A DNA stretch of 43,683 nucleotides from a candidate division WOR-3 bacterium (GTDB lineage Bacteria > Hydrothermota > Hydrothermia > LBFQ01 > DSFT01): assembly GCA_965649115.1 (NCBI GenBank), contig CBFGJN010000010.1:1-43683 (forward strand), in the 5' to 3' direction. Numbering within the stretch: position 1 is the stretch's first letter; each line of letters opens with the position of its first letter. The position numbers and the translations under genes are program-made. The notes below the pieces were generated by a model that worked only from the letters and a program-made list of their open reading frames with translations, was not told the origin of the DNA and did not search any database. Below, one piece after another: positions 16,191 through 43,683 of the stretch.

Positions 16191-17678
16191 ATGAAAAGAA
16201 TTTTATCACCATCAGAGATGAAAGAAATTGATAATAGTTCAAAAATTCCACAAATTGTTTTAATGGAAAATGCAGGAAGAGGTGTTGCTAATGAGATTAA
16301 AGATATTTCAAATAGTTTCTTAATTCTTTGTGGAAGCGGTAATAATGGAGGTGATGGTTTTGTAATAGCAAGATGGCTTAAAAAATTCAAAAAAAATGTA
16401 AAAGTTATTATATTTGATGATAATTTTAAAACAAATGAAACAAAAATTAACTTTGAATTATTAAAAGTTTTTGATGTTGAAATTGAAAAATTTGAAAAAC
16501 AAAAATTCTTGGAGAATATAAGAAATTATGAAGTTATTGTAGATGCGATATTTGGAACGGGATTTAAAGGTTCATTAAAAGATGATTATTATGATGCTAT
16601 TGAAATTTCAAATAATTTAAACAAAATAAGAATAGCAGTTGATATACCAAGTGGTGTAAATGGAGAGAATGGATTTATTGAAAATATCGCATTTAAAAGT
16701 GATATAACATTTACATTTGCTTTTGAAAAACTTGGTCATTATTTATTTGAAGGTAAAATTCATAGTGGGAAAATTAAAGTAATTGATATTGGAATTGAGG
16801 AAAAATTAGCAGAAGATAAGGGATTTTTATATCTAGAGCATAGTGATATTCTAAATTTATTGCCAAAATATAAAGGTTATGAAAGTAAGAGAGATAAAGG
16901 AAAGGTTTTGATAATTGGTGGAAGCAAGGATTATACAGGGGCAGTTATTTTAAATGTTATTGGAGCTTTAAGTAGTGGTGTGGGTTTAATTTATTGTGCT
17001 GTTCCAAAAACTATTTACCCTTACACTGTTGGAAAAATTCCAGAAGCAATTTTAATTCCATTAGAAGATGAAAATGGATATTTATGTAAAAAAAGCTTTT
17101 TGGATTTAATTTCAAAAAATTTGAATTTTGATAGTATTGTTGTTGGAAGCGGAATTTCAAGAAAAGAAAGTGTTAGGGAATTTATGAATGAGATATTAAA
17201 TTTGAATTTAAATAAAATTGTAGATGCTGATGGAATATGGGCTATTAGTGAAAAAATTCATTTATTGGATGAAAAAACAATTATAACACCACATGTTGGT
17301 GAAATGAGTTTTATTGTAAAAAAAGAACCAAAATTCATAGATAGAAATAGAATTAACATTGCTCTTGACTTTTCAAAGAATTATAAATGTGTTTTATTAC
17401 TTAAAGGTAATCCGTCTGTTATTGTTCAAAAGAATTTTAGATTTTTAAATATATGGGGTGATGAAAAATTAGCAAGGGGTGGAAGTGGTGATGTTTTAAG
17501 CGGTTTAATTGGAGGATTTTTAGCACAAAATCTAAGTCCAATTTATAGTACTGTCATTTCAGCTTATTTACATTCAAGAAGTTGTGAATTTTTTGATAAA
17601 CTAACATTTAAACCAAGCGATATTCCAAAAGGCATTAGGAAATTATTATCTTATAAAACTTTCCATCAACGCTTATAA
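16191..17678 (+). CDS. nnr: Bifunctional NAD(P)H-hydrate epimerase/dehydratase (YjeF)
   Basis: LMENAG, CGSGNNGGDG, VDAIFGTG, VDIPSG, VDADG, ITPHVGE, GGSGDVLSG. Confidence 0.96.
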   Translation: MKRILSPSEMKEIDNSSKIPQIVLMENAGRGVANEIKDISNSFLILCGSGNNGGDGFVIARWLKKFKKNVKVIIFDDNFKTNETKINFELLKVFDVEIEKFEKQKFLENIRNYEVIVDAIFGTGFKGSLKDDYYDAIEISNNLNKIRIAVDIPSGVNGENGFIENIAFKSDITFTFAFEKLGHYLFEGKIHSGKIKVIDIGIEEKLAEDKGFLYLEHSDILNLLPKYKGYESKRDKGKVLIIGGSKDYTGAVILNVIGALSSGVGLIYCAVPKTIYPYTVGKIPEAILIPLEDENGYLCKKSFLDLISKNLNFDSIVVGSGISRKESVREFMNEILNLNLNKIVDADGIWAISEKIHLLDEKTIITPHVGEMSFIVKKEPKFIDRNRINIALDFSKNYKCVLLLKGNPSVIVQKNFRFLNIWGDEKLARGGSGDVLSGLIGGFLAQNLSPIYSTVISAYLHSRSCEFFDKLTFKPSDIPKGIRKLLSYKTFHQRL

Positions 17679-20207: not shown

Positions 20208-21713
20208 TTAATCAATTAAAACTTTTATAACTTTATTTTTAATTTTTAAGAAATAAATACCACTCTGCTCTAAGCGAATAAAATCACTAACACCTTTTTT
20301 AAACAAAGAACCATCAATTTTATAAATTGAATAATCAACAATTTTATTAAATTTAATAGTTTTGTTTAAAATTTCGTACTTAAAATTATCGCTTTCATAA
20401 ACTTCAACAGGTGTAATAGGCTTACAATTATTATCTGAAACATTCGTGGTATTATAATAAACATATAAGCGAGCTGATTGGCCGTTATAAATTCCCGCTA
20501 CAATATCAGGTTTTTTATCAGAATTAACATAACCCACATCAAGTCCATAAATTCCATAAGGACCATTATTACTTTCAATTATACGAACTTGCCAGTTATT
20601 ATTTCCAAGATTTTCAAGCCATCCAAGACCATTATTTGGAACAGGGACATCTGTATATCTTGTTGAATCATATTTAAGGCCAGAAGCCCAAACAATATCA
20701 TTATCACCATCACAATCAATATCTGCTATTTTTAATTCACAAGTTCCAAATTTAACATTAGGTAATAAAACATTAACACTCTGAAAATTCAAAGGATTTC
20801 CGCCTTGATTCATTCTTATTGAAATCAAAGCACTATCATTCCCAAATGATGTACAACTAACTATATCAGGCCTATTGTCATTATTTAAATCTCCTACTGC
20901 TACACCATGATAGTAATAATCAATTGTTAATGAATACTTGTTTGACCAACCATTACCCAAATTTAATCTATAATAAACCGAACCTTGACGAACATAATTT
21001 CCCCTTGAACAAACAAAATCAATTCTTCCATCATTATTTAAATCAGCCAATGAAAGTCCCTCATCACAAGCATAATCTAAATTTACAAGACTATCAACTC
21101 TAACAAGTGTATTTGAAACATAATTATATTTAAACAAAGAATAACCTTCATCTGTAAAGTAAATATCACTACCATAAGCGCTTATATGATTTGGAAAAGT
21201 AAATCTATTATTAGTTATAGTATAATCGCTAAAATTACCATTGCCATTATTAATTAATATATTTAGTGTTCTACTTAAAGCTGAAACGTTTGCTATATCT
21301 ATTTTACCATCATTATTGAAGTCTCCAAGTGTTAAACCATAAGGTAAATATCTTGACTGGCTACCAACAGGCACACAATTGAAATTACCAAGTGATGTTT
21401 GATAAGCTATTCTCACAACTCCAAAAGCATTATTATTACTATCAGCTGTTATAAAAACAATATCATTTAGTCCATTATTATCAATATCTCTTATAAGACC
21501 TTTATCGTTTATTAAAGTGACAAACTTATTGCCAGGAATGAATGGTGATGAACATATTTGAACTTTGTTAAATGTTGCATTTCCATAAACAATAGGAGCA
21601 AGGACAATATCTTCTATCTTTTGAATTTCAGCAACTTTTCTACTATCAATAGCTAATCTAACTATCTTATCATAAAATGGTGAGTCACCTAAGAAACCTA
21701 AAATCCAAAACAT
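20208..21713 (-). CDS. FG-GAP/VCBS repeat protein with T9SS-type CTD
   Basis: DFNNDGKIDI, DLNNDGRIDF, DIDCDGDNDI; IYKIDGSL...GIYFLK. Confidence 0.88.
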   Translation of the reverse strand: MFWILGFLGDSPFYDKIVRLAIDSRKVAEIQKIEDIVLAPIVYGNATFNKVQICSSPFIPGNKFVTLINDKGLIRDIDNNGLNDIVFITADSNNNAFGVVRIAYQTSLGNFNCVPVGSQSRYLPYGLTLGDFNNDGKIDIANVSALSRTLNILINNGNGNFSDYTITNNRFTFPNHISAYGSDIYFTDEGYSLFKYNYVSNTLVRVDSLVNLDYACDEGLSLADLNNDGRIDFVCSRGNYVRQGSVYYRLNLGNGWSNKYSLTIDYYYHGVAVGDLNNDNRPDIVSCTSFGNDSALISIRMNQGGNPLNFQSVNVLLPNVKFGTCELKIADIDCDGDNDIVWASGLKYDSTRYTDVPVPNNGLGWLENLGNNNWQVRIIESNNGPYGIYGLDVGYVNSDKKPDIVAGIYNGQSARLYVYYNTTNVSDNNCKPITPVEVYESDNFKYEILNKTIKFNKIVDYSIYKIDGSLFKKGVSDFIRLEQSGIYFLKIKNKVIKVLID

Positions 21714-21717
21714 ATTC

Positions 21718-23235
21718 TCACCTCCTTATAACAAAAGCCTTTTCAAAAACTGCTGTATTATTATATACTTTCAATAAATATGCTCCCGAAGGTAAGTTGA
21801 ACTGAGTTTTTAAGGATTTTATTGTTCCATCTAAAATTTTTACACCCTGTAAATTGTAAATATCAAATTTTGAATTTAACAGTGAGTTTGAAACTATTAA
21901 ATTTCCTTTAATATCTAATATAATTTTCAAATTTTTATTTTCAAAATTACTTACAGGTGTAACCCCACAATTACCTCCACTTATATTATAAAAAACTCTA
22001 AAAAATGCTAATTCCATTAACCCAACATTTGAAGCACTTAGTACAATATCAGGTCTATTGTCATTATTCAATAATCCTACATTTAGTCCATAATTGCTAT
22101 AATTCTTACTATCAATAATATAATTTGTCCATCCTCCACCACCAATTGTGGGATTATTTATCCAGCCTGCTGAAGGACCTGCATTAGTATAACCTTCTTT
22201 TTTACCCATTCCTCTTATCCAAACAATATCATTATCGCCATCACAATCTAAATCATATACTTTAACTTCGGACGCTTGAAGGTTAGAACCAACGGAGATA
22301 CTTGCTAATAGCGAAAATGTAGGGGGATTACCACCGTTATTTTTATAAACTAAAATAGCATCATTTTGATCATCAGTTATTACAACATCTAATTTACCAT
22401 CATTATCCATATCTGCAACAGCAACACTATGATAATAACCAGGTGTTGTAGTGATATTATATAAACCACTCCAATTAGAGCCTTGTCTAAGCTGAAAAAC
22501 AACATTTCCTGGACCTCTAAAATATCCCTTTGAACAAACAATATCCAATTTACCATCATTGTTTAAATCACCAATTGCTAATCCTTCTGCACAATAATTA
22601 TTTATTTTTGAACTTGAAACACCATTATAAAAATGAACACCTTGATTTGAACCATCACTTTTACCCTCATCTGTAAAAACAATTTCATTTGATGATAAAA
22701 CCGCAATATGATTTATATAATAAAATGTATCACTTATGGTTGAATTATATAACATTTGTTCAGAAAAGTTTTGATTACCATTATTTATAATTTCTCTTAA
22801 TTCTCCACCACCTGAAACCACATAAGCAATATCAATTTTTCCATCATTATTAAAATCATAAGAAGTAATACCATAAGGATTAGAACCATATAATGTATTT
22901 ATTTGTTTTAGGGAGAAATTAAGAGCTGAATTTTGAAAACAAATAGCAACCATTCCAAATCCAGAAACATCGTACTGATAAACACCAGCTATATCATTAT
23001 ATCCATTATTATCAAAGTCTTTAATTAAACTATTAGTAGGAGCTACCAACTTTGTCATATAAGAATATGTTGAACTTATACATACCGAGTCTTCATAGAA
23101 TGTAAGAGGACCTGCTTGGATAAATTTTGAAGAACTATCATTTTTGAGTATCTCATAAGCCTTATTTTCTATATTCTTTTGAAAAAGTGATGTTTGATAA
23201 GGTGTCCAAATTTGGCTTATTAAAAACAAAAACAT
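21718..23235 (-). CDS. FG-GAP/VCBS repeat protein with T9SS-type CTD (paralog of 20208-21713)
   Basis: DFNNDGKIDI, DMDNDGKLDV, DLDCDGDNDIVW; IYNLQGVKI...LPSGAYLLKV. Confidence 0.88.
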   Translation of the reverse strand: MFLFLISQIWTPYQTSLFQKNIENKAYEILKNDSSSKFIQAGPLTFYEDSVCISSTYSYMTKLVAPTNSLIKDFDNNGYNDIAGVYQYDVSGFGMVAICFQNSALNFSLKQINTLYGSNPYGITSYDFNNDGKIDIAYVVSGGGELREIINNGNQNFSEQMLYNSTISDTFYYINHIAVLSSNEIVFTDEGKSDGSNQGVHFYNGVSSSKINNYCAEGLAIGDLNNDGKLDIVCSKGYFRGPGNVVFQLRQGSNWSGLYNITTTPGYYHSVAVADMDNDGKLDVVITDDQNDAILVYKNNGGNPPTFSLLASISVGSNLQASEVKVYDLDCDGDNDIVWIRGMGKKEGYTNAGPSAGWINNPTIGGGGWTNYIIDSKNYSNYGLNVGLLNNDNRPDIVLSASNVGLMELAFFRVFYNISGGNCGVTPVSNFENKNLKIILDIKGNLIVSNSLLNSKFDIYNLQGVKILDGTIKSLKTQFNLPSGAYLLKVYNNTAVFEKAFVIRR

Positions 23236-23239
23236 ATTC

Positions 23240-24895
23240 TCACCCCCTTATAAGAATTTTTCTTTTTATGGTTTTGTTCTCATATTCAAGCCTTAAAATG
23301 TAAAAACCCTCTCTTAAAGACAATTCAAAATTGTTTTGATTAAACTCATTTCTATAAATAAGTGTTCCATCAATTTTATAAATAGTTAAAACTTTCAATG
23401 ATTTTATTTTTGAATTGATTTTCAAAATTTTTCCTTGATTAATAATACTAATTTCACAATCTTGGTAATTTTCAGAATCACTCAAAGGTGTTAATAAACC
23501 GCAAGCAACCTTTTTTGAAACATTAACATTTAATGAAGTGTAATTTACATTAGAAACTAAAACTGGAACATTAGTATATAAATTCCAATTATTTCCATTT
23601 GATAATGTTATACTTTGATTTACATCTGGAATAAAAGTTCTCCAATAACAAGTATCTTGAATACCACTATCTGCTGCCAAAACCCCATCCCAATTACCAT
23701 TTGAAAAATTAGTGTTATTAATCCAACCAACTGCATAAGCAATACCACCCTTTACCGTTATTCCCCTTCCCTCTCCCGTTATTGGAAGCAAATATCTAAT
23801 ACTTATCAAAGAACAATTAGATTTATTAATTTTTGCATAAAATAAATTCCCATAAACTAAACTATTGTCATAATTCAAACCACCAGTAATATAATAATAA
23901 CTTGAACCCTCTTCCACATCAATACCAAAATCATGATTAAGACTACCAAATCGCCTAGCACAAACCAAATTACCGTTTTGGTCAATTTTTAAGAAAAGAA
24001 TATCAGAATTTGAAGCACCTCCATCTATATGTTCCGCTACAATAATACTACCATCTGATGCTAATTTCGCCCATGTTAAACGATTTACACTTCTATTTCT
24101 ATTATAAACCTTTTGCCAAATTAAGTTTCCATTATTTATATTAAACTTTCCAATCCATATATTATTATTTGAAGCTCCAAAAGCAATGATATTTCCATCA
24201 CTACTTTGAAGAACACTATTAATTCCTCTATAAGCAAGAACATTATCCATCGTATCACCTACTGCTCTAATCCAAGTTAAATTTAAGTTTTGGTCAAGTT
24301 TTGCTACAAATCCTTGTGTTGTTGAAATCCAAGCATTATTATAAAACCTTTCATATTGGATTTCACCTCCAATTACAAATCCATTATCAGTTGTCCTTTT
24401 TATACTAAGAATTCTTAACCAATTATTTATAGTTGGATCTCCCCAATTATCATGAAATCTTTTTGCAGTTATAAATGAACCATCGCTGTTATTTAGCTTT
24501 ATTATAAAACCTTCATTTGTCGCACTTGGTAAATTAGTACAAAAATTATAAGAACCACCATCAGGAGTACATGAAATTCCTACAATTACGATATTGCCAT
24601 TATCATCATAATCAAATCTATAAGACCAATCATTCAAATTTGGAACACCAATGACCCGTTCCCATAAGCTTGAACCATAAGGATTTGTTTTAATAATAAT
24701 GAAATCCGAACCCGAAGAATTATCTATTTTATAACTGCCACTTGTTAAGAAGTTGAAAATAATGGAATTACCAGGTGCATAAAAATCAACCCTTTCAAGA
24801 TAATCTAAATTAGAACCTCCATAGGTCCTAAGTCCTGACCAAGCCTGAGCATTCAAAACTCCAAAGAAAAATAAAATCAGATAAAAGCTCCTCAT
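23240..24895 (-). CDS. Secreted beta-propeller protein with T9SS-type CTD
   Basis: Normal signal peptide (MRSF...LNA), TYGG/KLD..G repeats, IYKIDGTLI...GFYILRL. Confidence 0.85.
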   Translation of the reverse strand: MRSFYLILFFFGVLNAQAWSGLRTYGGSNLDYLERVDFYAPGNSIIFNFLTSGSYKIDNSSGSDFIIIKTNPYGSSLWERVIGVPNLNDWSYRFDYDDNGNIVIVGISCTPDGGSYNFCTNLPSATNEGFIIKLNNSDGSFITAKRFHDNWGDPTINNWLRILSIKRTTDNGFVIGGEIQYERFYNNAWISTTQGFVAKLDQNLNLTWIRAVGDTMDNVLAYRGINSVLQSSDGNIIAFGASNNNIWIGKFNINNGNLIWQKVYNRNRSVNRLTWAKLASDGSIIVAEHIDGGASNSDILFLKIDQNGNLVCARRFGSLNHDFGIDVEEGSSYYYITGGLNYDNSLVYGNLFYAKINKSNCSLISIRYLLPITGEGRGITVKGGIAYAVGWINNTNFSNGNWDGVLAADSGIQDTCYWRTFIPDVNQSITLSNGNNWNLYTNVPVLVSNVNYTSLNVNVSKKVACGLLTPLSDSENYQDCEISIINQGKILKINSKIKSLKVLTIYKIDGTLIYRNEFNQNNFELSLREGFYILRLEYENKTIKRKILIRG

Positions 24896-30172: not shown

Positions 30173-32077
30173 TTAGCCTCCTTTTTGATTTTTAAAGCTA
30201 ACTATAAATTTTGTTTCTTTTGATTTATAAAATTTCACTTCATTTGGTTTTAACTCTTCACTTATATTTTCAATAGGTTTTGGTGCATAGTACTCAATAA
30301 CAAACATTTCATTTGGAAACTTGCTGATAAACGATTTTAATTCTTCTAAATTTTTAAATGTGAAAACTTGATTATAATCAACAAGCTTTATATCAATTGT
30401 TGTATCCTTAATTTCATTAATTTCATAATTTATTTCCATAGTTGGACAATTTTCACATGCTATTTTAAATTTATAACTTCCAATTGGTAATTTTAAAAGC
30501 TTTGTAGAATCTTGAAAATTATTTATTAGCTCATTATCTTTATAAACCTCAATAATAGCTTTTTTATCTAAATTTAAATTCACATAAGACAATCTTGGTT
30601 TTAAGTAAATTTTTATTTGATAAGAACTGTCGCCCTTAAAATCAAAAACTTTATAATAATCTTCATAATCAATTGAAAACAATTTTATAGCATAAGTGCC
30701 TTCTGGAATTGTTAAGCTTAAAATTGTAGTTTCCTTCTCAATTGTATCTATTGATATTTTCACGAATGCAGGTTTATTTCTTAAACTATCAAAAACTTCA
30801 ATTAAAACATTTGCCTTTGCTTTTTCTTTTAATTTATATGTAAATTTTTTAGCATTATTCTTAAAAATAATTTTATCTTTAATACTAAAATAATTCCTGC
30901 TTGAAATGCTTAAATTGTAAATTCCATATGGAACTTTAACGATAGCTTTTGAATTGTTAGATTGAAATTCTCCAATTTTATAATTCCAAGTCGTGTCAAA
31001 AACCTCAACTAAAAAATCATTTATCTTATTACCATTAGTATCATAAGCTTCAACAATAAAAAATTTAGATGTATCCGTTTTTAATTTCTTTTTGGATTGA
31101 TAACTTAATTGAAACCTAAAATTAGGTTTAGATTCTCCTTCTTTATTAAATCTATAAATCATTCTATCATCTGAAATATCTAAGCTTAATTCTTGAAATT
31201 TTGCTCCAATTCCAAATGTCGGACCTATTCTATCACCATATAAATCATAAAAATAACCAAATCTTAAAAATATAAAATTTCCTATACCTATCTCTGCGCC
31301 AGCATGTTTAAAAGCTTCATTTATTACCCAATTTAATCCACTATCTGCATAATCTTGAACTATATTAACTAAAATTTTTACAACATCACCAGCAAATCTG
31401 AAACTTAAATTGCCAAATTTATTATAATATCCAATTCCTAATCTTAAAGCTAATGGAAGTGGTTCTGAAACTTCATTTCCAGAATATCTTAGATTTGGTC
31501 CTATATTTTGTAAGGAAATTCCTAAATTTAAATTATAATCTGAATGATACAAAATACCTAAATCCACTGCTGGAACTTGGGCAGTTCCTTTACCTTCAAC
31601 ACCATATACCTTCCTTAAAATATCCTCAGGAACTAAAAAACTATAATAATATTTCACTGCTCCACCAACTTTTAAATTCTTTAATAACTCACTGCCAAAA
31701 CCTAAACTCAAAACAACATCATAAGGAACAAATTTATAAGTATTTCCTTGTTCATCTTGTATTTCAACCTCACCAATTGTTAAATATGTTAAGCTTAAAC
31801 CTATTGTTCCTCTATTTGTCGGATAAACCAAAGAACCAAATTCATAATACGCATCAGGTATTAAACCAAGTAACCAATTTGAATGTTGCCATCCAAATAA
31901 ATTAAAATTTCTTATATTTGCTAAACCTGCTGGATTATAATAAATTGCAGACATATCATCAGAAAAAGCTGTGAAAGCACCACCTAATCCCGTAGCAACT
32001 GCTCCTGGATAAATTGTTAAAACAGGAGCAGAAGCATCTCTTGCTGAGCTTATAATAATGTTTAAAATAAAATTCAT
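30173..32077 (-). CDS. PorV-family beta-barrel protein with C-terminal PEGA/Ig-like extension
   Basis: LTIYPGAVATGLGGAF...AIYYNPAGL, HSNWL, LGISLQNIGP, EPLP..LRLG; then VPYGIYNLSI, IPEGTYAIK, LPIGSYKFKI repeats. Confidence 0.82.
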   Translation of the reverse strand: MNFILNIIISSARDASAPVLTIYPGAVATGLGGAFTAFSDDMSAIYYNPAGLANIRNFNLFGWQHSNWLLGLIPDAYYEFGSLVYPTNRGTIGLSLTYLTIGEVEIQDEQGNTYKFVPYDVVLSLGFGSELLKNLKVGGAVKYYYSFLVPEDILRKVYGVEGKGTAQVPAVDLGILYHSDYNLNLGISLQNIGPNLRYSGNEVSEPLPLALRLGIGYYNKFGNLSFRFAGDVVKILVNIVQDYADSGLNWVINEAFKHAGAEIGIGNFIFLRFGYFYDLYGDRIGPTFGIGAKFQELSLDISDDRMIYRFNKEGESKPNFRFQLSYQSKKKLKTDTSKFFIVEAYDTNGNKINDFLVEVFDTTWNYKIGEFQSNNSKAIVKVPYGIYNLSISSRNYFSIKDKIIFKNNAKKFTYKLKEKAKANVLIEVFDSLRNKPAFVKISIDTIEKETTILSLTIPEGTYAIKLFSIDYEDYYKVFDFKGDSSYQIKIYLKPRLSYVNLNLDKKAIIEVYKDNELINNFQDSTKLLKLPIGSYKFKIACENCPTMEINYEINEIKDTTIDIKLVDYNQVFTFKNLEELKSFISKFPNEMFVIEYYAPKPIENISEELKPNEVKFYKSKETKFIVSFKNQKGG

Positions 32078-34566: not shown

Positions 34567-34755
34567 TTAAATAAATGCTCCAAAATTACAAAATGGGCAC
34601 ATAGCTAACCTCCTTTTCATAACGCAATCATAACAAGCAGGTGCTCCACAATAACTACAAGTCCTAATACAAGAATTACAAAATCCTCTTCTACAAAACG
34701 AACATTGAACATAAACTGGATTTATTCTACATCTAAAACAACGTGCAACAAACAT
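34567..34755 (-). CDS. Small Cys-rich zinc-finger protein (six CxxC pairs)
   Basis: 62 aa, 12 Cys; SD AAAAGGAGG directly after the dynamin-WD40 stop. Confidence 0.8.
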   Translation of the reverse strand: MFVARCFRCRINPVYVQCSFCRRGFCNSCIRTCSYCGAPACYDCVMKRRLAMCPFCNFGAFI

Positions 34756-34769
34756 AACCTAACCTCCTT

Positions 34770-37025
34770 TTATATAAACTTTTCTATTATGAACTTTGAA
34801 AGCTCATCGTTCATCTTATAAACTCCTGAAATCAGCTCATTAAGGAAATTATCAATTTCTTGATTTTTGGTTATTGAATTTATTTGTTTTATATAATTTT
34901 CTTCAATCTCCCTACATACATCTTTCCAACCACTTGTTATAATTGAAGGCAAATTGGATGAAATTTCGTTATAAACTTTGTTTCTTATTTCATTGGCCTT
35001 TTTGTTAGCATAAATAAAAAGCAATATTAATAAAATTGAAGAAACGACTATGCCATAAATAGGCTTCGCAAAAATATACTTTACAAGTATTCCTAATACA
35101 ATAGAACCAATTATTCCCAACAAAACTTGGATAAATAGATTAGGGTAATTAGTATCTAATCTATAATCAAATTTCAGATTTGGTTTTTTTTGTTTAAAAT
35201 TTGAATCTAAATCAAAAATTTTAATAATTGAGATATTATTTATCAACATCTTAGCTTTAATAATCATCTCTTTATGAAAAAATTCGCTTATCCCATCAAT
35301 GTCGGCAGAAATTTTATTATTTAGCTTCTCATTTAGGTTACTTATCAACTTCTTAATAACACTTTCTCCTTTTGTAATAATATCAAAATTTGAAATTTTA
35401 TGAAGACCCTTTTTTAAGTTTTCCAAGTAAAAATTTATATAATCTTTATCCCATTTCCTAACCTTAGTCATATTCTCTTCAAAGACTTCAATAAGTTCAT
35501 CTCTTATTATATTTAAATTGGTTTTGAAAGTAGAAACATAAGAAGCAATTATGATAACATTTCGTAAGAACTTAACCAATTTTTCATCATTCTTAAACTT
35601 CTTGGCAGATGCCGGAATATAACCTAAAATTCTGTTCTTTGGATAAATTTGTTCAACCTTTTGCTTTATATAATCTATACGTTCTTGAATTTGATTTTTT
35701 TCTTCACCTTCAAATAAATCTATTTTATTTAATATAAAAAGAATGTAAATTTCCTCACGCTTTGCTCTCTCCTTTACAATCTCTAAAAATTCAGCATCAA
35801 ATTTACTTAAACCTTTTGATACGCCAAGCATCCAAATAATAATGTTATAGTTATTCTTTTTAAGGTAATCACTTAACTCATTATTTATGCTACCATCATA
35901 ACCAGGAAAGTCAGATATTCTAACAAATTTTAAAAATTCTTGCGTTTCAGAATTAAACTCATTTAGATCCCATATCTTAACAGTTTCAGCACTTCCACTT
36001 GCCAAGAACTTTCCATCAGGACTAAATGAAACTGAATTAACACTATCAGAATGTCCTTTTAATGTTTCCATCTCTTTCCAACTCTCAACTTCCCATATCT
36101 TGATTGTTTTATCACGACTTCCACTTGCCAAAAACTTTCCATCAGGACTAAATGAAACTGAATAAACACTATCAGAATGTCCTTTTAATGTTTTTATTTC
36201 TTTCCAAGTTCCAACTTCCCATATTTTGATTGTTTTATCACTACTTCCACTTGCCAAGAACTTTCCATCAGGACTAAATGAAACTGAATAAACACTACCA
36301 GAATGTCCTGTTAATGTTGTTATTTCTTTCCAACTTCCAACTTCCCATATCTTAATTGTTCTATCCCAACTTCCACTTGCTAAATACTTACCATCAGGAC
36401 TGAAAGAAATTGAAAAAACACTATTAGAATGTCCTTTTAATGTTTTTGTTTCTTTCCAAGTTCCAACCTCCCATATCTTGATTGTTTTATCATAACTTCC
36501 ACTTGCTAAAAACTTACCATCAGGACTAAACGAAACTGAAAGAACACTATTAGAATGTCCTGTTAATGTCTTAATTAGCTTCCAACTCTCAACTTCCCAT
36601 ATCTTGATCGTTCCATCCTCACTTCCACTTGCTAAATACTTACCATTAGGACTAAATGAAACTGACACGACATAATCAGAATGTACTTCTAATGTTTTAA
36701 TTAATTTCCAACCTCCAACTTCCCATATCTTGATTGTTTCATCCTCACTTCCACTTGCCAAGAACTTTCCATCAGGACTAAATGAAACTGAATAAACACT
36801 ATCAGAATGTCCTGTTAATGTTGTTATTTCTTTCCAACTTCCAACTTCCCATATCTTTGAGTCACGACTTTCATTGATACCAAGCAAAAGGTTTAGAAAT
36901 GAAGATTTACCAATAAACTTTACACCAAAAGTACACATTTCAGGTCTATTTACAAAGTATTTCTTTCTTTCTTTTATTCTTCTAACCTTGTCTTCAATTT
37001 TCCATAGAATTTCATCTATCATCAC
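34770..37025 (-). CDS. Dynamin-like GTPase with inserted 7-repeat WD40 propeller and two TM helices
   Basis: G1 GVKFIGKSS, WD40 x7, G3 DFPG, G4 NKID, G5 SAK, helical stalk, hydrophobic hairpin. Confidence 0.85.
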   Translation of the reverse strand: MMIDEILWKIEDKVRRIKERKKYFVNRPEMCTFGVKFIGKSSFLNLLLGINESRDSKIWEVGSWKEITTLTGHSDSVYSVSFSPDGKFLASGSEDETIKIWEVGGWKLIKTLEVHSDYVVSVSFSPNGKYLASGSEDGTIKIWEVESWKLIKTLTGHSNSVLSVSFSPDGKFLASGSYDKTIKIWEVGTWKETKTLKGHSNSVFSISFSPDGKYLASGSWDRTIKIWEVGSWKEITTLTGHSGSVYSVSFSPDGKFLASGSSDKTIKIWEVGTWKEIKTLKGHSDSVYSVSFSPDGKFLASGSRDKTIKIWEVESWKEMETLKGHSDSVNSVSFSPDGKFLASGSAETVKIWDLNEFNSETQEFLKFVRISDFPGYDGSINNELSDYLKKNNYNIIIWMLGVSKGLSKFDAEFLEIVKERAKREEIYILFILNKIDLFEGEEKNQIQERIDYIKQKVEQIYPKNRILGYIPASAKKFKNDEKLVKFLRNVIIIASYVSTFKTNLNIIRDELIEVFEENMTKVRKWDKDYINFYLENLKKGLHKISNFDIITKGESVIKKLISNLNEKLNNKISADIDGISEFFHKEMIIKAKMLINNISIIKIFDLDSNFKQKKPNLKFDYRLDTNYPNLFIQVLLGIIGSIVLGILVKYIFAKPIYGIVVSSILLILLFIYANKKANEIRNKVYNEISSNLPSIITSGWKDVCREIEENYIKQINSITKNQEIDNFLNELISGVYKMNDELSKFIIEKFI

Positions 37026-37939
37026 TAACCTCCTTTTTATTATATAAAATTATCTATAATGAATTTTGAAAATTTATCATTCATCTTATAAGCACCTAAA
37101 ATCAGTTCATTAAGGAAGTTTTGGATACTTTTGTTATTGGTTAGCAAGTTTACTTTGTCCTTATAAGTTTCTTCTATTTCTTCACACACATCCTTCCAAC
37201 CACTTTCTATAATACTTGGTAATTTGGTTGAAACTTCATTATAAACTTTGTTTCTTATTTCATTGGCTTTATTATCTGAATCAATAATCGTCCAAATTAA
37301 TGAACCTAAGAAAACAAGCGTTCCAATACCAGGAATAAGTGCTCCCAAAGCAAGTCTTGCAAATATACCAGCACCAATTGAAGTCATAATTTTTCCTAAA
37401 ACTTCACCAAAAAGTTCATTAGAATAACTAGCTTGTTGAACATTGAAATCGGAAAAATCCAAACCTGAAATTCTCTGACTAAAATCATAATTTAAATTCA
37501 AATTTAAAATTTCAATATAGGAAATTGACATACCATTTATTAGCTTTTTAGCTTCATTAATTTCTTTACTTAGAAACTCAGCTATTTTCTCTATATCAGC
37601 ATTTATTTCACTTTCCAATCGCGAATTTAAATCTTCTATTAGTTGTTTAATAACACTTTCTCCTTTTGTAATAATATCAAAATTTGAAATTTTATGAAGA
37701 CCCTTTTTTAAGTTTTCCAAGTAAAAATTTATATAATCTTTATCCCATTTCCTAGCCTTAGTCATATTCTCTTCAAAGACTTCAATAAGTTCATCTCTTA
37801 TTATATTTAAATTGGTTTTGAAGGTAGAAACATAAGAAGCAATTATGATAACATTTCGTAAGAACTTAACCAATTTTTCATCATTCTTAAACTTCTTGGC
37901 AGATGCCGGAACATAACCTAAAATTTTGTTCTTTGGATA
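35353..37939. repeat. Near-identical direct repeat 35353-35645 / 37647-37939
   Basis: Constant offset 2294; encodes the shared G5-stalk segment LGY(I/V)PASAKK...KGESVIK. Confidence 0.95.
35969..36857 (-). repeat. Intragenic tandem array of seven 126-bp WD40 units (last one 123 bp)
   Basis: CCCATAT anchor at 36848, 36722, 36596, 36470, 36344, 36218, 36092 and 35969. Confidence 0.97.
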
Positions 37940-40510
37940 TATTTTTTCAATATCTTGTCTTACTTTATTTATTAGTTCCTCAAAACTTTTCCTATCTTCC
38001 CCTTCATAAATATCTATTTTATTTAAAATAAATAGAACATAGGGTTCTCTTCCTTTTATAATTTCCAAGAAATCACGATTTGTTTTCAATACGCCTTTTG
38101 ATATATCAAGTATATATAGAACAATATCGTAGTCTCCCTCTTTAAGGTAATTTTCAACCTCTTTATCCAAGCTCCCACTATAGCCAGGAATATCTACAAT
38201 ATTTAGAAATGCTAAAAAATCAGAACTCTCATCTTTAAAAGCATAATTTTCCAATTTATTATTTTGCATATTATAAACTTTTACATTTCTGGTTAGTTCT
38301 ATTGTTAGAATTTTATTTTTATAACTTAAAATTTTTCTTGGAAGAATAACCTCAAATTCATCAAGTTTTTCAAAATTTTCATCATAAATTAGAACTTTTT
38401 TATTAAGTGCGATAACAAGAAATCCATTATCAAAATTTAAGCAATTGACTTCTTCATTAAATTTGAATTCGTGAATTTTAGTTTGCTTAGAAATGTTGTA
38501 AATTTCAACAAAATTTTTAAAGCCAATAGCTAAATATTTTCCATTTCTGCTAAACGAAATATCTTCAATATAATTATTATCAGCTTCTCTAATTTCCATA
38601 ATTTCAGGTTTTTCTGATTTATGTTCAAAAATAGGAGTATAATCAATTATAATTACATTACCTTGATTTGTTCCAAGAGCAATTTTGTGATAATAGGATG
38701 AAATTTTGGAAAAGTATAAGGAATCTTCGCCTTCAAAATTTACTATTACTTTTAACTCTTTTATATCTAAGACTTTATATGAGCCATCAACAAAAATAGC
38801 ATAAATAAAATAACCATCAGTTGTTAAATCATGAACAGGAAATTCAAATTCTTTTTCAAGAACAAGTTTAAACTCACCATCCCAAATTTTGATTTTTTTA
38901 TCGTCGCTAGCAGTTACAAGAAGTTCGTCAGCCCAAGCCATACCCCATATAGAAAAATCATGAGCTTTAAAATAATTAAAAATAGAGAAGTCTTTCAAAC
39001 TTATATTATAAATTTTACCTTCATTTGTTCCAATAGTTAAAATATTTTTGTTTTTGTTTATTGCACAAATTTTAAATCCATCTAAAATTTTTTTAATTTT
39101 AAATTCCTTTTCTTCTAACTCGTACTTTGCTAGGACACCATCAAAACTCTTGATTTTTGTGATATTTTTAGTAGTTTCTCCTATTGAAGATTGGAATACA
39201 TTTTTACCCAATAATAAATTCAAGAATGAAGACTTACCAGCTGACATTTCACCAACAGCACATACTGTTGGTTTCCTTATAAAGTAATCTTTTCTTTGTT
39301 CTATTTTACTTATTTTTTCTTCAAGATCTTCAAGAAATATATCAATTTTATTAACCTTCAGTATTTTCATTATCTGTTCAATAGCTCTTATTTGATTTTC
39401 AATCTTTCCTTGAGCATCAGTTGATGATTTCTTATCTAACTCTTCATAAAGTACCTCGCTAGTAATAAATACTACTTTTTGAATATCTCGCTTAATTTTC
39501 TCAAACGAAGAAACTTTAGAAGATAGAAATTCTTTTTGTTTATAATTTATAACATCATTCCAAAATACCCTCTCAAAGTCCTCAAACAATTTCTTGTATC
39601 TTTTTGTTCTTTCATCTATCTCTTCTCCTTTTGCCTGCTTAATAAAACCTTGAAGCGCTAATTTGGCTGAAATGTAAAATAATTGTTCTACATCAATTTT
39701 TTGACTATATCCCTGCTCACTTAAAATATCATTCATCTTATTTATAACACCTTTACCAATTAGGTCAAAATTAGATTCTTCTTCTTCTTCATAAGCATCT
39801 ATCTTATTAAAAACAATATACCTCTTGTCAGGTCTTATCATTGACAATAACCTTGAAAGCTTTTCAATTTCATCTATTGTAATTCCTTGACTTATGTCAA
39901 GTATCGTTATAACAGCATCGCTTAAATTTATAGCACTTTGTATAAATTTCTTCATTAATTCTTCATTCAATGTTCCAAAACCAGGTGTGTCAATTACCTC
40001 TATTCCAGCCTTCAAATTTTCCAAAGGCATATAAATAAATACACTTAATTCATCCTCTGAAATGTTTAAAACCTTTCCCCCTTCCTTACTTTGCTCTGCT
40101 TTTGCTAATGTTTCCTCATTTAATTGCCTTATAAATTCCTTTATCTCCTCTAAATTATTAAATTTCTTTTCTGAATTCTTATATTTTACAGCATAATTTT
40201 CACCATAAGAAATATGATAAAGTCTTGCCGTCGTCTCACCTACTCTTGCTTCAAGAATCCTATCCTTAAATATAAGGGCATTTAGGAATGAAGATTTACC
40301 ATTTGAAACTTCTGCTATTACCGAAACCCTCACTTTATCGTCTATTAAAGACTTTATAACCCCCTCTAATTTTTGTATAGATTCGTCAAAATTTAAAGGT
40401 AAATTCACTGAATTTGAAATCTCTTGACATCTTTTTAAATCACTTATATAACTCTTTATACTTTCTATTATTCTAAACTTCTCTTTGTTATAACTATCTA
40501 AATCAAACAT
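37040..40510 (-). CDS. Double dynamin-like GTPase fusion; second GTPase domain contains a divergent WD40 propeller
   Basis: Domain 1: AEVSNGKSS, ETT, DTPG, NKID, SAK. Domain 2: GEMSAGKSS, ETT, [AHDFSIWGMAW...TASDDKKIKIWD...], DIPG, NKID, SAK. Confidence 0.88.
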   Translation of the reverse strand: MFDLDSYNKEKFRIIESIKSYISDLKRCQEISNSVNLPLNFDESIQKLEGVIKSLIDDKVRVSVIAEVSNGKSSFLNALIFKDRILEARVGETTARLYHISYGENYAVKYKNSEKKFNNLEEIKEFIRQLNEETLAKAEQSKEGGKVLNISEDELSVFIYMPLENLKAGIEVIDTPGFGTLNEELMKKFIQSAINLSDAVITILDISQGITIDEIEKLSRLLSMIRPDKRYIVFNKIDAYEEEEESNFDLIGKGVINKMNDILSEQGYSQKIDVEQLFYISAKLALQGFIKQAKGEEIDERTKRYKKLFEDFERVFWNDVINYKQKEFLSSKVSSFEKIKRDIQKVVFITSEVLYEELDKKSSTDAQGKIENQIRAIEQIMKILKVNKIDIFLEDLEEKISKIEQRKDYFIRKPTVCAVGEMSAGKSSFLNLLLGKNVFQSSIGETTKNITKIKSFDGVLAKYELEEKEFKIKKILDGFKICAINKNKNILTIGTNEGKIYNISLKDFSIFNYFKAHDFSIWGMAWADELLVTASDDKKIKIWDGEFKLVLEKEFEFPVHDLTTDGYFIYAIFVDGSYKVLDIKELKVIVNFEGEDSLYFSKISSYYHKIALGTNQGNVIIIDYTPIFEHKSEKPEIMEIREADNNYIEDISFSRNGKYLAIGFKNFVEIYNISKQTKIHEFKFNEEVNCLNFDNGFLVIALNKKVLIYDENFEKLDEFEVILPRKILSYKNKILTIELTRNVKVYNMQNNKLENYAFKDESSDFLAFLNIVDIPGYSGSLDKEVENYLKEGDYDIVLYILDISKGVLKTNRDFLEIIKGREPYVLFILNKIDIYEGEDRKSFEELINKVRQDIEKIYPKNKILGYVPASAKKFKNDEKLVKFLRNVIIIASYVSTFKTNLNIIRDELIEVFEENMTKARKWDKDYINFYLENLKKGLHKISNFDIITKGESVIKQLIEDLNSRLESEINADIEKIAEFLSKEINEAKKLINGMSISYIEILNLNLNYDFSQRISGLDFSDFNVQQASYSNELFGEVLGKIMTSIGAGIFARLALGALIPGIGTLVFLGSLIWTIIDSDNKANEIRNKVYNEVSTKLPSIIESGWKDVCEEIEETYKDKVNLLTNNKSIQNFLNELILGAYKMNDKFSKFIIDNFI

Positions 40511-40522
40511 ATTCGCCTCCTT

Positions 40523-42082
40523 TTAAATAACCTTACTTTCAAGCATATTTCTTATGTTATTTACAGCACTTTCTATGGCTTTTATTTTGTTTTCGTAAAA
40601 CTTTATTTCATTTTCAATTTCTTCCTTATCCTTTCCAATAAATTCAATACTTTTTTCAACTGAAACTATTTCACTATCCAAATTGGCATATTCTTTAAGT
40701 TTCAACTCCTCAAAATAATAGTTTTTAGAACTTTCTATGGAATAAATAACATTATCTTTAAGTCTATTAAAAATCTTGTTTATATCAGCCTCAATACTGC
40801 CTGTCGCTATTGTTCTTATGAAATTTTGAATAATATCGGTTAAATCAGGTAAATTCAACTCCCTCAATACTGGATCAAATATCTTACCAAGGAAATCTAT
40901 TGATGAAATAATGAACGAAGTAAAGAATGAAGTTGATTCTATTTCAGAAAGTTCTGAAAGATCAAATTCAAGCTCTGACTTATTTATAGCTTCTTTTATG
41001 CTCAATATGAGTAATTGAATTTCATTTCTTAAATTTACAGATAGGTAGGTTTTTAGGTTATCTGGATCTATGCTTTTCACAGTCGTAATAACTTCCATTC
41101 TTTTATTATCAATAAGTGGAATAACTTGGTTTTTTATAATATCTGCAATTTTAGCATCTACTCTTTTTCTTAAATCATTTAGTACATTATCAAGTTCAGA
41201 TTTTTTTGTTTTTAGTTCGGCTAATTTTGCTTTAAGCTCTTCTCTTGTTTTTTGTTTATTTTCAATTAATGAATTTAGCTGTTTTTTTGTAATTTCTTCA
41301 ATTGTTTTCATAATTGAACTTATTCTTGTCTTTATGATTTGAGATTTACTAGTCGCTGAGAGATAATTAAATAACTGATTTTTGAAGTCCAAAAAACCTT
41401 GATCTTTTTCTTTTGCTGAAAATACAAAAACGGCAAAATCTTCCAAATTCTTCTTTATCTTTTGAATTTCATAATCATCAATTTCATCGCTAACTAAATC
41501 AAGTTTATTAAAAACAATAAAAATTTTATCTCTTAAAAATTTAATAATATAATTGTCAAAAAATTCTTTATCTTTTTTCGTTAAGCCTTTGGTAATATCC
41601 AAAACAAATATGACAGCATCAGCAGTAGGAACTCTTGAAAGTGTTAAATTTTCTAAATTTTCTTGTAATTCATCAATTCCAGGTGTATCTACAAAAACCA
41701 CACTTGAAAATGGAAACTCTTTAAGATAAACATTAACAGCTTTTAAATTAGGTTTTTCATTTATAATTTCAAAATTCCTTTCATCAAGTTGATAAATCTC
41801 AGAACTTCCATCTTTATAAATTGCTTCAATTTTATCTTCATCTGACTTTATAACAGTGTTTATTGATTTCGTAACTGTTCCAATTCCCGTAGGCATAATA
41901 TCTTTACCAAGAAGAGCATTCATTATTGTAGTTTTACCCGTTGATAATTTACCTACAAAAACAACCTCTATTTTATCCCTTTTTACAACATCAATAGCAA
42001 CATCACAAAGCTTTTCAAGATATTCGTTCTCCAAAAACGATATATTACTTTTTATAAGTTCAAGTTCCCTTTCCATATTCAA
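40523..42082 (-). CDS. Bacterial dynamin-like protein
   Basis: GKLSTGKTT, VT, DTPG, NKLD, SAK, long coiled coils. Confidence 0.92.
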   Translation of the reverse strand: MNMERELELIKSNISFLENEYLEKLCDVAIDVVKRDKIEVVFVGKLSTGKTTIMNALLGKDIMPTGIGTVTKSINTVIKSDEDKIEAIYKDGSSEIYQLDERNFEIINEKPNLKAVNVYLKEFPFSSVVFVDTPGIDELQENLENLTLSRVPTADAVIFVLDITKGLTKKDKEFFDNYIIKFLRDKIFIVFNKLDLVSDEIDDYEIQKIKKNLEDFAVFVFSAKEKDQGFLDFKNQLFNYLSATSKSQIIKTRISSIMKTIEEITKKQLNSLIENKQKTREELKAKLAELKTKKSELDNVLNDLRKRVDAKIADIIKNQVIPLIDNKRMEVITTVKSIDPDNLKTYLSVNLRNEIQLLILSIKEAINKSELEFDLSELSEIESTSFFTSFIISSIDFLGKIFDPVLRELNLPDLTDIIQNFIRTIATGSIEADINKIFNRLKDNVIYSIESSKNYYFEELKLKEYANLDSEIVSVEKSIEFIGKDKEEIENEIKFYENKIKAIESAVNNIRNMLESKVI

Positions 42083-43683
42083 ACCTCCTCTCTAAGTTTT
42101 GTCTCTAAGAGTTCTGATATGCTTTTTATAGCATTTAATTGGGTTTCAATCTCTTTTATTCTTTCATCTAAATCACCTTTTTCAAGCATTTTAATTATTT
42201 CAGAGCTAATAAACTTAACCTCGTTAAATTTAATTCTAATATTATCTATGAAATCCGTTAAAATATCATTTAATTTATTAATATCTTCCCTTAAATCATA
42301 AAGACTAGTATAGACTCCTTCAATGATTCTTTGTTTTAATTCTTGTTTTTTCTTCTCTACATTTGCCAACAAATCAAAAATTGTCCAAACTAAACCAGCT
42401 AAAATGCCTATTGGACCAGCAATTGCACCAGCAATTGCCTCACTCCCAGCCCAAATAGCAGCATTAGTTCCTATAAATTCTAAAGCAATTGCTCTCACTA
42501 ACATTCCCACAGTAAATCCAGCCATAACTCCGCTTAAAAGAGAACCAAAAATATCACCACTCACAACCTCAATCTGACTTGCAATGTGCTTTTCCTCAAT
42601 TTTCTTTTGCTGATAATCTATCTTAGGAAATCTAAATCTTTCTATATTCATTTTTTCAAGTTCAGAATTAAATTCATCAACACTTTTATTGTAATCTTCA
42701 ACGTACTTTCTAATATTTGAAAAAATAGGTCCATAATAATTTTGAAAAACATCATCCAAAATTTTTCCAATATCTATTTCAGATAATCGTTGATTTATTT
42801 CTTGCTGTATCTCATCCGCGGAAAACAAAGAAGAAAAAACATTATAATTTTCTTCAACATAGCTAATAACTGCTGACTCTTGCAAAATTTTTTCTCCAAC
42901 TTTTTGAATAATTTCATCGGTGTTTAATTTAATACCTTTTAAATTTTCTATATAACCACTGGCTTTTTGTTGAAGAGACTGAGCCATTGTATTAATTTTA
43001 TTTTGTTCTCTTAATATAGATTCTTTTTCAGATTTTAACGATAATAATTGATTACTTAAATTTTTATAAATACTATTGACTTCTTTATTTATAAATTCCT
43101 TTGTTCTTTCAAACGAAGAAACTTTAGAAGATAGAAATTCTTTTTGTTTATAATTTATAACATCATTCCAAAATACCCTCTCAAAGTCCTCAAACAATTT
43201 CTTGTATCTTTTTGTTCTTTCATCTATCTCTTCTCCTTTTGCCTGCTTAATAAAACCTTGAAGCGCTAATTTGGCTGAAATGTAAAATAATTGTTTTACA
43301 TCAATTTTTTGACTATATCCCTGCTCACTTAAAATATCATTCATCTTATTTATAACACCTTTACCAATTAGGTCAAAATTGGATTCTTCTTCTTCATAAG
43401 CATCTATCTTATTAAAAACAATGTACCTCTTGTCAGGTCTTATCATTGACAATAACCTTGAAAATTTTTCACTTTCACCCTTCTTAATTCCTTGACTTAT
43501 GTCAAGTATCGTTATAACAGCATCACTTAAATTTATAGCACTTTGTATAAATTTCATCATTAATTCTTCATTCAATGTTCCAAAACCAGGTGTGTCAATT
43601 ACCTCTATTCCAGCCTTCAAATTTTCCAAAGGCATATAAATAAATACACTTAATTCATCCTCTGAAATGTTTAAAACCTTTCC
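42079..43683 (-). CDS. Bacterial dynamin-like protein, 5' end outside the window
   Basis: Frame is open past 43635 to the edge (GKVLNISEDELSVFIY); DTPG, NKID, SAK; Gly/Ala-rich membrane paddle. Confidence 0.92.
   Translation of the reverse strand, partial: GKVLNISEDELSVFIYMPLENLKAGIEVIDTPGFGTLNEELMMKFIQSAINLSDAVITILDISQGIKKGESEKFSRLLSMIRPDKRYIVFNKIDAYEEEESNFDLIGKGVINKMNDILSEQGYSQKIDVKQLFYISAKLALQGFIKQAKGEEIDERTKRYKKLFEDFERVFWNDVINYKQKEFLSSKVSSFERTKEFINKEVNSIYKNLSNQLLSLKSEKESILREQNKINTMAQSLQQKASGYIENLKGIKLNTDEIIQKVGEKILQESAVISYVEENYNVFSSLFSADEIQQEINQRLSEIDIGKILDDVFQNYYGPIFSNIRKYVEDYNKSVDEFNSELEKMNIERFRFPKIDYQQKKIEEKHIASQIEVVSGDIFGSLLSGVMAGFTVGMLVRAIALEFIGTNAAIWAGSEAIAGAIAGPIGILAGLVWTIFDLLANVEKKKQELKQRIIEGVYTSLYDLREDINKLNDILTDFIDNIRIKFNEVKFISSEIIKMLEKGDLDERIKEIETQLNAIKSISELLETKLREEV

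Follow-up and report, generated by a model that had tools for sequence, protein, structure and literature searches.

We analyzed contig C10 (hereafter the window) at its full length of 43,683 nt, from the metagenome-assembled genome G000 of a candidate division WOR-3 bacterium (1.85 Mb in 99 contigs, ~27% GC), and focused on five tightly spaced minus-strand genes at 34567–43683, here named A to E from the contig end inward. In the list of open reading frames (ORFs), the TTG start listed for B overlaps the stop codon of A by 4 nt, and the remaining gaps are 12 nt (B–C), 14 nt (C–D), and 14 nt (D–E). The original prediction for this stretch had described an operon with five dynamin-type G domains, two of them with a WD40 propeller between the G1/G2 and G3 motifs, and with a 12-cysteine protein at its end. 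These observations are all confirmed: motifs and ORFs yield five G domains (G1 of A lies beyond the contig end, and D is without G2); the propellers in C and D are placed between G1/G2 and G3 by Pfam, by the repeats, by a structure model, and by uninserted homologues; and E, the last gene of the operon, carries six CxxC pairs. The interpretation attached to them, a core dynamin pair with interchangeable sensor-dynamins, is supported in part, namely for the core pair, for a single G domain, and for interchangeable WD40 repeats. All features of genes A to E given below are on the minus strand.

On homology, C and D are copies of a conserved third dynamin-like gene of the operon (hereafter the third dynamin), which elsewhere, on metagenome contig L028, has no propeller. 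Gene C (37040–40510; 1156 aa) consists of an A-type head, a linker, and a third-dynamin module split by a propeller. In this second module, motifs and the alignment to uninserted homologues place the P-loop GEMSAGKS (residues 420–427) and the switch I motif GETT (444–447) at 39167–39253; the stretch from the G3 motif DIPG (773–776) to the G4 motif NKID (830–833) lies at 38012–38194, and no variation occurs in its G3–G4 columns in either alignment A3 or alignment A6. Between β2 and β3 in the AlphaFold model lies a divergent seven-bladed WD40-type propeller (approximately residues 473–750; 38261–39094), and a hydrophobic hairpin, putatively a membrane paddle or transmembrane hairpin, is found at 37280–37390 (Kyte–Doolittle scan; model helices 642–666 and 674–687). 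Gene D (34770–37025; 751 aa, GTG start), a third-dynamin paralogue by ORF, alignment, and model, has a P-loop GVKFIGKS (residues 34–41; 36903–36926), G3 DFPG (372–375) to G4 NKID (433–436) at 35718–35912, and a hydrophobic hairpin at 34995–35147 that is more divergent than in other family members (scan, alignment). Its propeller is built of seven near-identical WD40 repeats in 126-nt units (35958–36857; repeat family, blastn, Pfam). These 42-aa repeats span residues 72–365, match Pfam WD40 in seven stretches (E = 1.9e-105), and are 68–90% identical to the reference copy of the repeat family and 78–92% identical to one unit by blastn. Both alignment and model show D to lack a GETT-type G2/switch I and β2, so that the propeller directly follows helix α1. 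Because the switch I/GETTK segment and β2 are absent, normal GTP hydrolysis by D is unlikely. Another record, P0001, is 99% identical to D.

The motifs on the two sides of the propeller belong to one G domain, as the original prediction supposed: in uninserted homologues the MMR_HSR1 profile runs across the insertion point with 113 of 113 positions (residues 29–158 in P0003). When the C-terminal 387 residues of D were used as the query, only seven proteins were found in 5.8 billion clusters. The uninserted homologues (P0003, P0004, P0005, P0007, and P0008; 471–494 aa) have a contiguous G domain and align to C and D on both sides of the propeller, with the P-loop and a GETTK switch I before it and FLxFxNIVDIPGY (G3) and NKID (G4) after it; the second module of C is 75% identical to P0003. 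Among these homologues are proteins from Sulfurihydrogenibium subterraneum (WP_028950613.1) and Hydrogenobacter thermophilus (WP_340690484.1) whose annotation reads “dynamin family protein.”

Structure models agree with this arrangement. Full-length MAFFT alignments of C (A4 and A5) put third-dynamin or A-type sequences on the wrong head, and only module 2 (residues 390–1156) was modeled (AlphaFold model mdf961ae207e3; 13-row alignment; predicted local distance difference test [pLDDT] 79.2, with 81–94 in both flanks of the propeller). The model of D (m99c04b7f5422; 13-row alignment) has a pLDDT of 79.3, rising to 87–98 across residue blocks 71–350, and the element order β1-α1-propeller-β3-α2-β4-α3-β5-α4-β6-stalk. 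The order common to the models is β1, P-loop, α1, (β2), propeller, β3, α2, β4, α3, β5, α4, β6, stalk helices, hairpin, and helices. Apart from the propeller, which comes after β2 and before β3, this predicted order is the one known from canonical GTPases. Long helices follow β6 in both models, and hydrophobic hairpins are predicted in A, C, and D, with none in B. The insert of C matches Pfam WD40 families weakly (E = 5.9e-7) and is 23–26% identical to canonical WD40 arrays. Its modeled propeller (model residues 86–360) aligns with 3ow8_A over 263 residues (VIA-align; Z = 29.5, root mean square deviation 2.3), and this chain together with 49 further WD40 chains makes up all 50 matches listed in the structure search of the module 2 model. 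That a propeller with 23–26% identity still has a seven-bladed fold argues for long retention.

The WD40 array behaves as a cassette. Within one 90% cluster, P0004 (484 aa, without WD40) has a core 97% identical to that of P0162 (772 aa, seven repeats) and 96% identical to that of P0006 (735 aa), and P0159 (486 aa) differs from P0004 by a two-residue “WK” footprint at the insertion site, matching the array ends. Near-identical cores with and without WD40, together with this footprint, argue for a clean in-frame gain-or-loss cassette in the β2–β3 loop. The sensor-dynamins foreseen in the original prediction are thus interchangeable with respect to WD40; rather than additions to a core pair, they are copies of the conserved third gene. 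Between D and P0162, the core is 47% identical and the insert 79% identical. In the tree, P0004, P0159, P0006, and P0162 form a clade with 100/100 support that excludes D and C, so that P0006 and P0162 are WD40-inserted, G2-intact forms apart from D and C, and inserted forms occupy at least two places in the third-dynamin family. An insert more alike than the core and its presence in at least two places of the tree suggest that the cassette was exchanged or repeatedly acquired; the alternative for the 79% identity is strong constraint on the scaffold. WD40-inserted forms are found in four further protein records from several sources (P0001, P0006, P0162, and P0002), among which P0162 has two identical consecutive repeats and P0006 only six repeats. 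An ESM Atlas search with D gave a best score of 0.80, below the useful range, and no cluster combining dynamin and WD40 among the matches listed.

Variation among the repeats is uneven. Within the 42-residue unit of D, position 23 takes six residue types, positions 7 and 25 five each, and position 4 three, with lesser variation at positions 34, 38, 39, and 42; in the repeats of P0162 and P0006, the most variable positions are also 4, 5, 7, 23, and 25. From canonical WD40 topology we take these five positions to form the D–A loop and the B–C turn on the top face of the propeller, position 23 presumably being the residue before the conserved Asp. The variation therefore appears concentrated on the top face, as expected of a binding surface, and Hu et al. 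(2017) describe like variation in highly repetitive WD40 proteins, at sites predicted to be hotspots of interaction (PMC5587647). We infer that the propeller is a protein-binding module, for target recognition or recruitment.

The core pair of the original prediction is borne out by genes A and B, which match the LeoBC and LeoA profiles of PADLOC, respectively, at E of ~1e-15 each. Gene A (42079–43683, its 5′ end open at the contig end) encodes a LeoBC-like membrane-anchored dynamin-like protein (E = 1.1e-15 over profile positions 123–583 of 601) with DTPG and NKID motifs and a hydrophobic hairpin at 42355–42552 (hydrophobicity scan). Because it is truncated in the window, it falls below the Dynamin_N cut-off (24 bits versus 27); the full-length orthologue on L028 (667 aa) reaches 1e-19 for LeoBC and 1e-20 for Dynamin_N. 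Its nearest solved structures are Nostoc BDLP (2j68, E = 1.3e-11), Mfn2, and Cj-DLP1 (5owv_A). Gene B (40523–42082; 519 aa) encodes a LeoA-like dynamin-like GTPase (Dynamin_N E = 1.3e-22 over positions 1–165 of 168; LeoA E = 1.2e-15) with the motifs GKLSTGKT (G1; 41930–41953), DTPG, and NKLD (G4; 41498–41509). No hydrophobic 19-mer or hairpin was found in B by the Kyte–Doolittle scan, as for a soluble-type protein; its nearest solved structures are Mfn1 (9e-12), BDLP (2e-10), and Cj-DLP2 (5owv_C, 8e-10), and its L028 orthologue matches LeoA at 2.2e-18.

Gene E (34567–34755; 62 aa; ORF and motif count) matched no Pfam family, and its 12 cysteines are invariant in all three sequences available (12/12), so that it looks like a conserved, zinc-finger-like member of the operon. 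A search for homologues gave one candidate (P0175, 94% identity), a result of little weight since small ORFs are often uncalled. Predicting a complex between the uninserted third dynamin (from the P0004 alignment), the Cys protein, and three Zn gave no answer (score 0.01), which is evidence neither way.

The operon as a whole is conserved at a second locus, L028, where A (667 aa, 58% identity), B (509 aa, 67%), a third dynamin with no insert (484 aa), and, after it, a 63-aa orthologue of E (70%) with the same 12 cysteines are found together. Because L028 carries these genes without an insert, the basic system comprises three dynamin-like proteins and a Cys protein. Divergently upstream of the operon at both loci is a gene for a 452-aa (contig C36 of the same genome, 14373–15731, minus strand) or 454-aa protein (L028, 4842–6206, minus strand); the two are 70% identical, match the winged-helix family HTH_24 weakly (E = 0.0013), and may be regulators of the system. 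Genes absent from L028 lie between the 452-aa gene and gene A on C36 (locus L078, 7832–9678, plus strand): ORFs of 211 and 117 aa, two near-identical tandem ORFs of 80 and 81 aa, and a 109-aa protein with four transmembrane segments, which matches PF04020 (Phage_holin_4_2) at 29.1 bits against a cut-off of 28.8 and whose gene ends 8 nt before gene A.

Relatives are rare. A third-dynamin profile searched against 1.84 billion cluster representatives returned just 5 matches with an E-value of 1e-30 or lower, and a limit of 1e-10 raised this number to 43. With P0003 as the query, close matches (E ≤ 1e-10) were found in only 2 of 272 phylum genomes; one of the two is G000 itself, and the match in the other is 35% identical. 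Six of six other genomes of the family gave weak matches to other GTPases only (E from 3.6e-4 to 4.7e-8). For gene B, matches (E ≤ 1e-15) were likewise found in 2 of the 272, again with G000 included. Scanning the contigs of other genomes with alignment A1 returned one distant match, in a metagenome-assembled genome of Vampirovibrionales (29% identity), and no relative was found among 514 pattern matches in viral contigs. Since close matches are limited to 2 of 272 genomes, the system is probably an accessory, laterally moving island and probably horizontally acquired.

The additional head of C comes from within the operon. Its first ~336 residues are, by similarity, a recent duplicate of the gene A head: the 5′ part of A (the G head and first helices) is repeated at 39501–40524 and fused in frame to the third-dynamin module, similarity to A ending at ~336–340 residues, where a linker of ~50 aa begins. 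The head carries the motifs EVSNGKSS, GETT, DTPG, and NKID and matches Dynamin_N at positions 1–158 of 168, C as a whole matching at E = 7e-35 in two stretches (Pfam). Farther along the chain, residues 941–1123 match positions 381–553 of the PADLOC LeoBC profile. With one hydrophobic hairpin only and a first unit that ends at ~336, C differs from a DynA-type fusion, in which each unit has its own G domain, stalk, and paddle. A search for longer fused forms found only gene C itself and one weak 1053-aa match.

This duplication also explains a feature of the contig that the original prediction had not recognized, namely that it stops within gene A, where the sequence repeats the head of gene C at 97% identity. 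The last 575 nt of the window (43109–43683) correspond to 39501–40078, inside gene C; over 578 nt the two copies differ by 13 mismatches and one gap (97.2% identity). Contig C36 ends in a stretch that is 97% identical to 40371–40524 and encodes residues 1–46 of gene A, in an ORF that begins MFDLSSYNKEKF. Between C36 and C10, ~290 nt of gene A are thus unassembled, the P-loop among them. Since both contig ends match the gene C head at ~97%, the assembly broke at a repeat, and the join of C36 to C10 is supported by the synteny between the 452-aa gene on C36 and the 454-aa gene at the L028 operon. Public contigs from hot-spring metagenomes bridge the junction between the end of B and the start of C in two runs (X1 record 6 and X4 record 14) and that between C and D, including the unusual N-terminus of D, in one (X4; the 5′ end of D is covered by X4 record 10). 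Both copies of the 97% repeat occur as separate error-free contigs (X1 record 8; X4 records 12 and 13). A further run, X8, from a hot spring of another study, contains relatives at 90–95% identity with very high depth on the WD40 repeats. Joints in that run, such as those that lead from 36828 to 40516 and from 38218 back to 36089, are short on each side (25–41 letters at 90–95% likeness) and were not built on; they hint at B being followed directly by a D-type gene and at a canonical WD40 array joined to a C-type core, and relatives may be arranged otherwise.

Among known systems, the A/B pair is most readily compared with Eleos (LeoA plus LeoBC; the Leo operon of enterotoxigenic Escherichia coli). 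A LeoBC-like membrane dynamin is followed by an adjacent, tightly coupled LeoA-like dynamin, both are P-loop GTPases, and the LeoBC-like partner has a hydrophobic hairpin. Both Eleos genes are thus represented, at weak profile scores (~1e-15 to 1e-19) and by individual profiles only. Unlike Eleos, the locus has WD40 propellers inside the G domain; it also has a third, smaller dynamin-like gene and a 6×CxxC protein, components that the available part of the Eleos account does not mention (10.1101/2022.05.11.491447). As to a setting among known defense systems, frequent for Eleos, the one locus of this genome with readable flanks has housekeeping or unknown neighbors and a HEC-01A/AriA-like ATPase ~19 kb away. 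The LeoBC relationship extends to the third-dynamin family, whose C-terminal part matches positions 380–555 of the PADLOC LeoBC profile (E from 1e-6 to 1e-8), and its members seem to combine a loosely dynamin-like G domain with a LeoBC-like C-terminal half.

Campylobacter jejuni DLP1/DLP2 and Nostoc BDLP are the best solved-structure sequence matches of A (2j68, 5owv_A) and B (5owv_C, 2j68), and they share operon-paired genes and the sequence of G domain, helical stalk, and membrane hairpin, although the E-values are only 1e-7 to 1e-11. To our knowledge, the solved DLP1/DLP2 and BDLP lack both a third partner and any insertion of a domain into the G domain. DynA of Bacillus subtilis, which is linked to membrane protection and phage defense in the available text of PMC12998192, resembles gene C in having two G domains in one chain; the first unit of C is, in contrast, a head only (~340 aa from A) with neither stalk nor hairpin of its own, and its second head is split by a propeller. 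STAND/NLR-like receptors with WD40 arrays are alike in logic, with an NTPase switch, repetitive WD40, and top-face variation (PMC5587647, available part). Here, however, the NTPase is a dynamin-like TRAFAC GTPase, the repeats sit within the NTPase domain rather than at the C-terminus, and the presumed output is membrane remodeling in place of an effector domain. No NACHT or NB-ARC STAND ATPase family was matched in A to E at E ≤ 0.01 (Pfam; for D, the best 25 of 61 families, all of them propeller families). For the insertion itself there are precedents in other GTPases: the helical domain of Gα is a whole domain inserted after α1/switch I, and in the Arf interswitch toggle the β2–β3 interswitch informs both switches. 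These are other GTPase families with other inserted folds, and the likeness is an analogy only. In the literature covered, that outside subscription journals, we came across neither a bacterial dynamin whose G domain contains a WD40 or other propeller nor a three-dynamin operon or this four-gene operon.

In Ras-like GTPases, β2 and β3 connect switch I and switch II, and a propeller can sit at the tip of the β2–β3 hairpin with the fold unbroken because its N- and C-termini adjoin. The reading that we favor, with a probability of roughly 0.45, is that the operon encodes a four-component membrane GTPase system of hot-spring bacteria that is gated by its propeller and has an Eleos-like defense setting. 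This genome has two copies of the third gene, C and D, both with a propeller in the interswitch, and C has gained a duplicate of the G-domain head of A and thereby become two-headed. A target bound on the top face of the propeller would alter the interswitch and so signal to switch I and switch II; this change would gate the GTP-dependent pairing of the third-dynamin G domain with A, with B, or with the A-type head of C. Pairing of the G domains would in turn lead to membrane tethering, sealing, or remodeling by the A/B pair at the location of the target. D, without the switch I threonine, would be a regulatory, hydrolysis-poor partner and no motor. The likeliest setting would be a response of the Eleos type, directed at phage or at some other attack on the envelope; a defense setting is favored by the Eleos precedent, the patchy distribution, and the diversifying repeats. 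As precedent, a two-gene dynamin system of Bacillus vietnamensis protects against jumbo phages and needs both P-loops, according to the available text of Millman et al. (10.1101/2022.05.11.491447). The LeoA and LeoBC profile matches, and a second gene of this genome that has similar WD40 repeats and lies downstream of an IetA-like AAA+ gene, also point toward defense.

A bolder version, which we regard as doubtful, would make the locus a pattern-recognition receptor built around a membrane-anchored dynamin-like GTPase. Lodged in the interswitch, an exchangeable WD40 array that diversifies rapidly would sense a phage or competitor protein and allosterically gate GTPase pairing, recognition would lead to membrane sealing or scission by the partner dynamins, the head of D would be hydrolysis-dead, and C and D would represent two specificities. 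If true, the locus would pair an NLR-like logic with a mechanochemical output.

Several results weigh against a propeller-gated defense system. In the window, the genes immediately around the operon have largely housekeeping or unknown functions and form no obvious defense island, and the only clear defense-type gene, a HEC-01A/AriA-like ATPase, is ~19 kb away. Conservation of the operon is documented at two loci only. PADLOC scores of ~1e-15 are weak, and any bacterial dynamin pair may score so. The third-dynamin modules score 38–66 bits for Dynamin_N, above the cut-off, with a best stretch that covers only the first ~41–47 of 168 positions, and in a profile search of solved structures EngA and eIF5B (1e-8) come ahead of BDLP (9e-4). 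All 50 listed rows of the structure search fell on the propeller, and the fold of the split G domain is a prediction from the models and alignments. Variability on the top face with a conserved scaffold is a general trait of highly repetitive WD40 arrays and does not imply immune sensing, and D, with its divergent hairpin and no G2, could be decaying. At 39501, the boundary between the repeat and the linker, public contigs overlap by k − 1 letters only; this boundary and the WD40 array are covered by short pieces only, which leaves the repeat number of D and the junction in C with no independent bridge.

Some of these points have a natural place in other accounts of the locus. If the three dynamins served housekeeping or stress-related membrane maintenance, repairing or shaping the envelope like DynA, the propeller would be a fixed docking scaffold (for division, secretion, or an envelope complex) and no variable sensor. 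Mainly housekeeping neighbors and the use of WD40 domains as generic scaffolds would be expected, paired dynamin genes are common in bacteria (PMC6104087, available part), and DynA is a housekeeping gene with a membrane-protective role (10.1101/2022.05.11.491447 and PMC12998192, available parts). We consider this account possible although rather unlikely, because the queries used found a close homologue of neither the third dynamin nor B in 270 of the 272 phylum genomes, because the propeller is present or absent among proteins with 96–97% identical cores, because variation is focused at top-face positions, and because the duplication and fusion in this genome are recent. Recent change is equally what one would expect if C and D were evolutionary debris, duplicates on their way to loss with WD40 as functionless, selfishly expanding repeats in a tolerant loop: repeats 78–92% identical in DNA indicate a very recent expansion, the P0159 footprint points to ready loss of the array, no long fused form besides C was found, and D combines the missing GETT switch I with a divergent hairpin and P-loop. 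Yet C (1156 aa) and D (751 aa) are intact frames in DNA of 27% GC, where stop codons arise easily; D retains its P-loop, G3, and G4; WD40-inserted forms with an intact G2 exist in another clade (P0006 and P0162); and the C propeller has diverged to 23–26% identity while remaining seven-bladed, which implies long retention. Debris is therefore an improbable explanation.

A metagenome chimera across repeats, giving rise to the two-headed C or to the repeat array of D, seems to us very improbable. It is suggested by the 99-contig assembly with a contig end within a 97% repeat, by the k − 1 overlap at 39501, and by the two identical consecutive repeats of P0162 and the six repeats of P0006. However, the two repeat copies are distinct, with 13 mismatches plus a gap over 578 nt, each of them being found in separate error-free contigs, the B–C junction is bridged in two runs and the C–D junction in X4, and the WD40-inserted forms in P0001, P0006, P0162, and P0002 come from several sources. 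The insertion into the G domain is, moreover, independent of whether the fusion is real.

A propeller-gated membrane GTPase system would bear on how bacterial dynamins, including Eleos, are switched on, an unsolved question; in the available part of their paper, Millman et al. call the defense mechanism of their dynamin operon unknown (10.1101/2022.05.11.491447). The family offers a natural experiment, with the same GTPase core lacking a propeller, carrying a canonical hypervariable propeller, or carrying an old divergent one, and the propeller would be a handle for identifying the trigger by pull-down. The insertion indicates that a dynamin-like G domain can tolerate a 300-residue domain in its interswitch, which would be useful for studying allostery and for engineering such motors, and the locus defines an operon of three dynamins and a putative zinc-finger protein.

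Elsewhere in the window, the candidate defense gene (14945–16153, minus strand) encodes a 402-aa AAA_21/AAA_15 ATPase that matches HEC-01A in PADLOC (E = 2.3e-49) and also PDC-M07A and AriA; no ORF of at least 110 aa was found between 13562 and 14945. Scans for promoters and terminators, uninformative at 27% GC, returned 50 promoter-like sites against 53.9 in shuffled sequences and a single terminator-like site on the opposite strand. A tandem pair of paralogues with FG-GAP repeats (501 and 505 aa) is encoded at 20208–23235 (minus strand), flanked by ORFs at 17635–20193 (852 aa) and 23240–24895 (551 aa), both without a Pfam family, and a PorV-like protein lies at 30173–32077; the region looks like a cell-surface or type IX secretion cluster. 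On another contig of this genome, C65 (locus L079; 4336–9569, plus strand), a co-oriented row of genes begins with one for a radical-SAM/4Fe-4S protein, which matches pVip weakly; then follow genes for an Hsp70-like ATPase of 465 aa, for an AAA+ ATPase of 643 aa that matches IetA in PADLOC (2.8e-32), and for a WD40 protein. The WD40 repeats are at the C-terminus of this last gene, which is cut by the contig end, and are 75% identical to those of D at the amino acid level; the row is possibly a second WD40-armed conflict system of the same genome.

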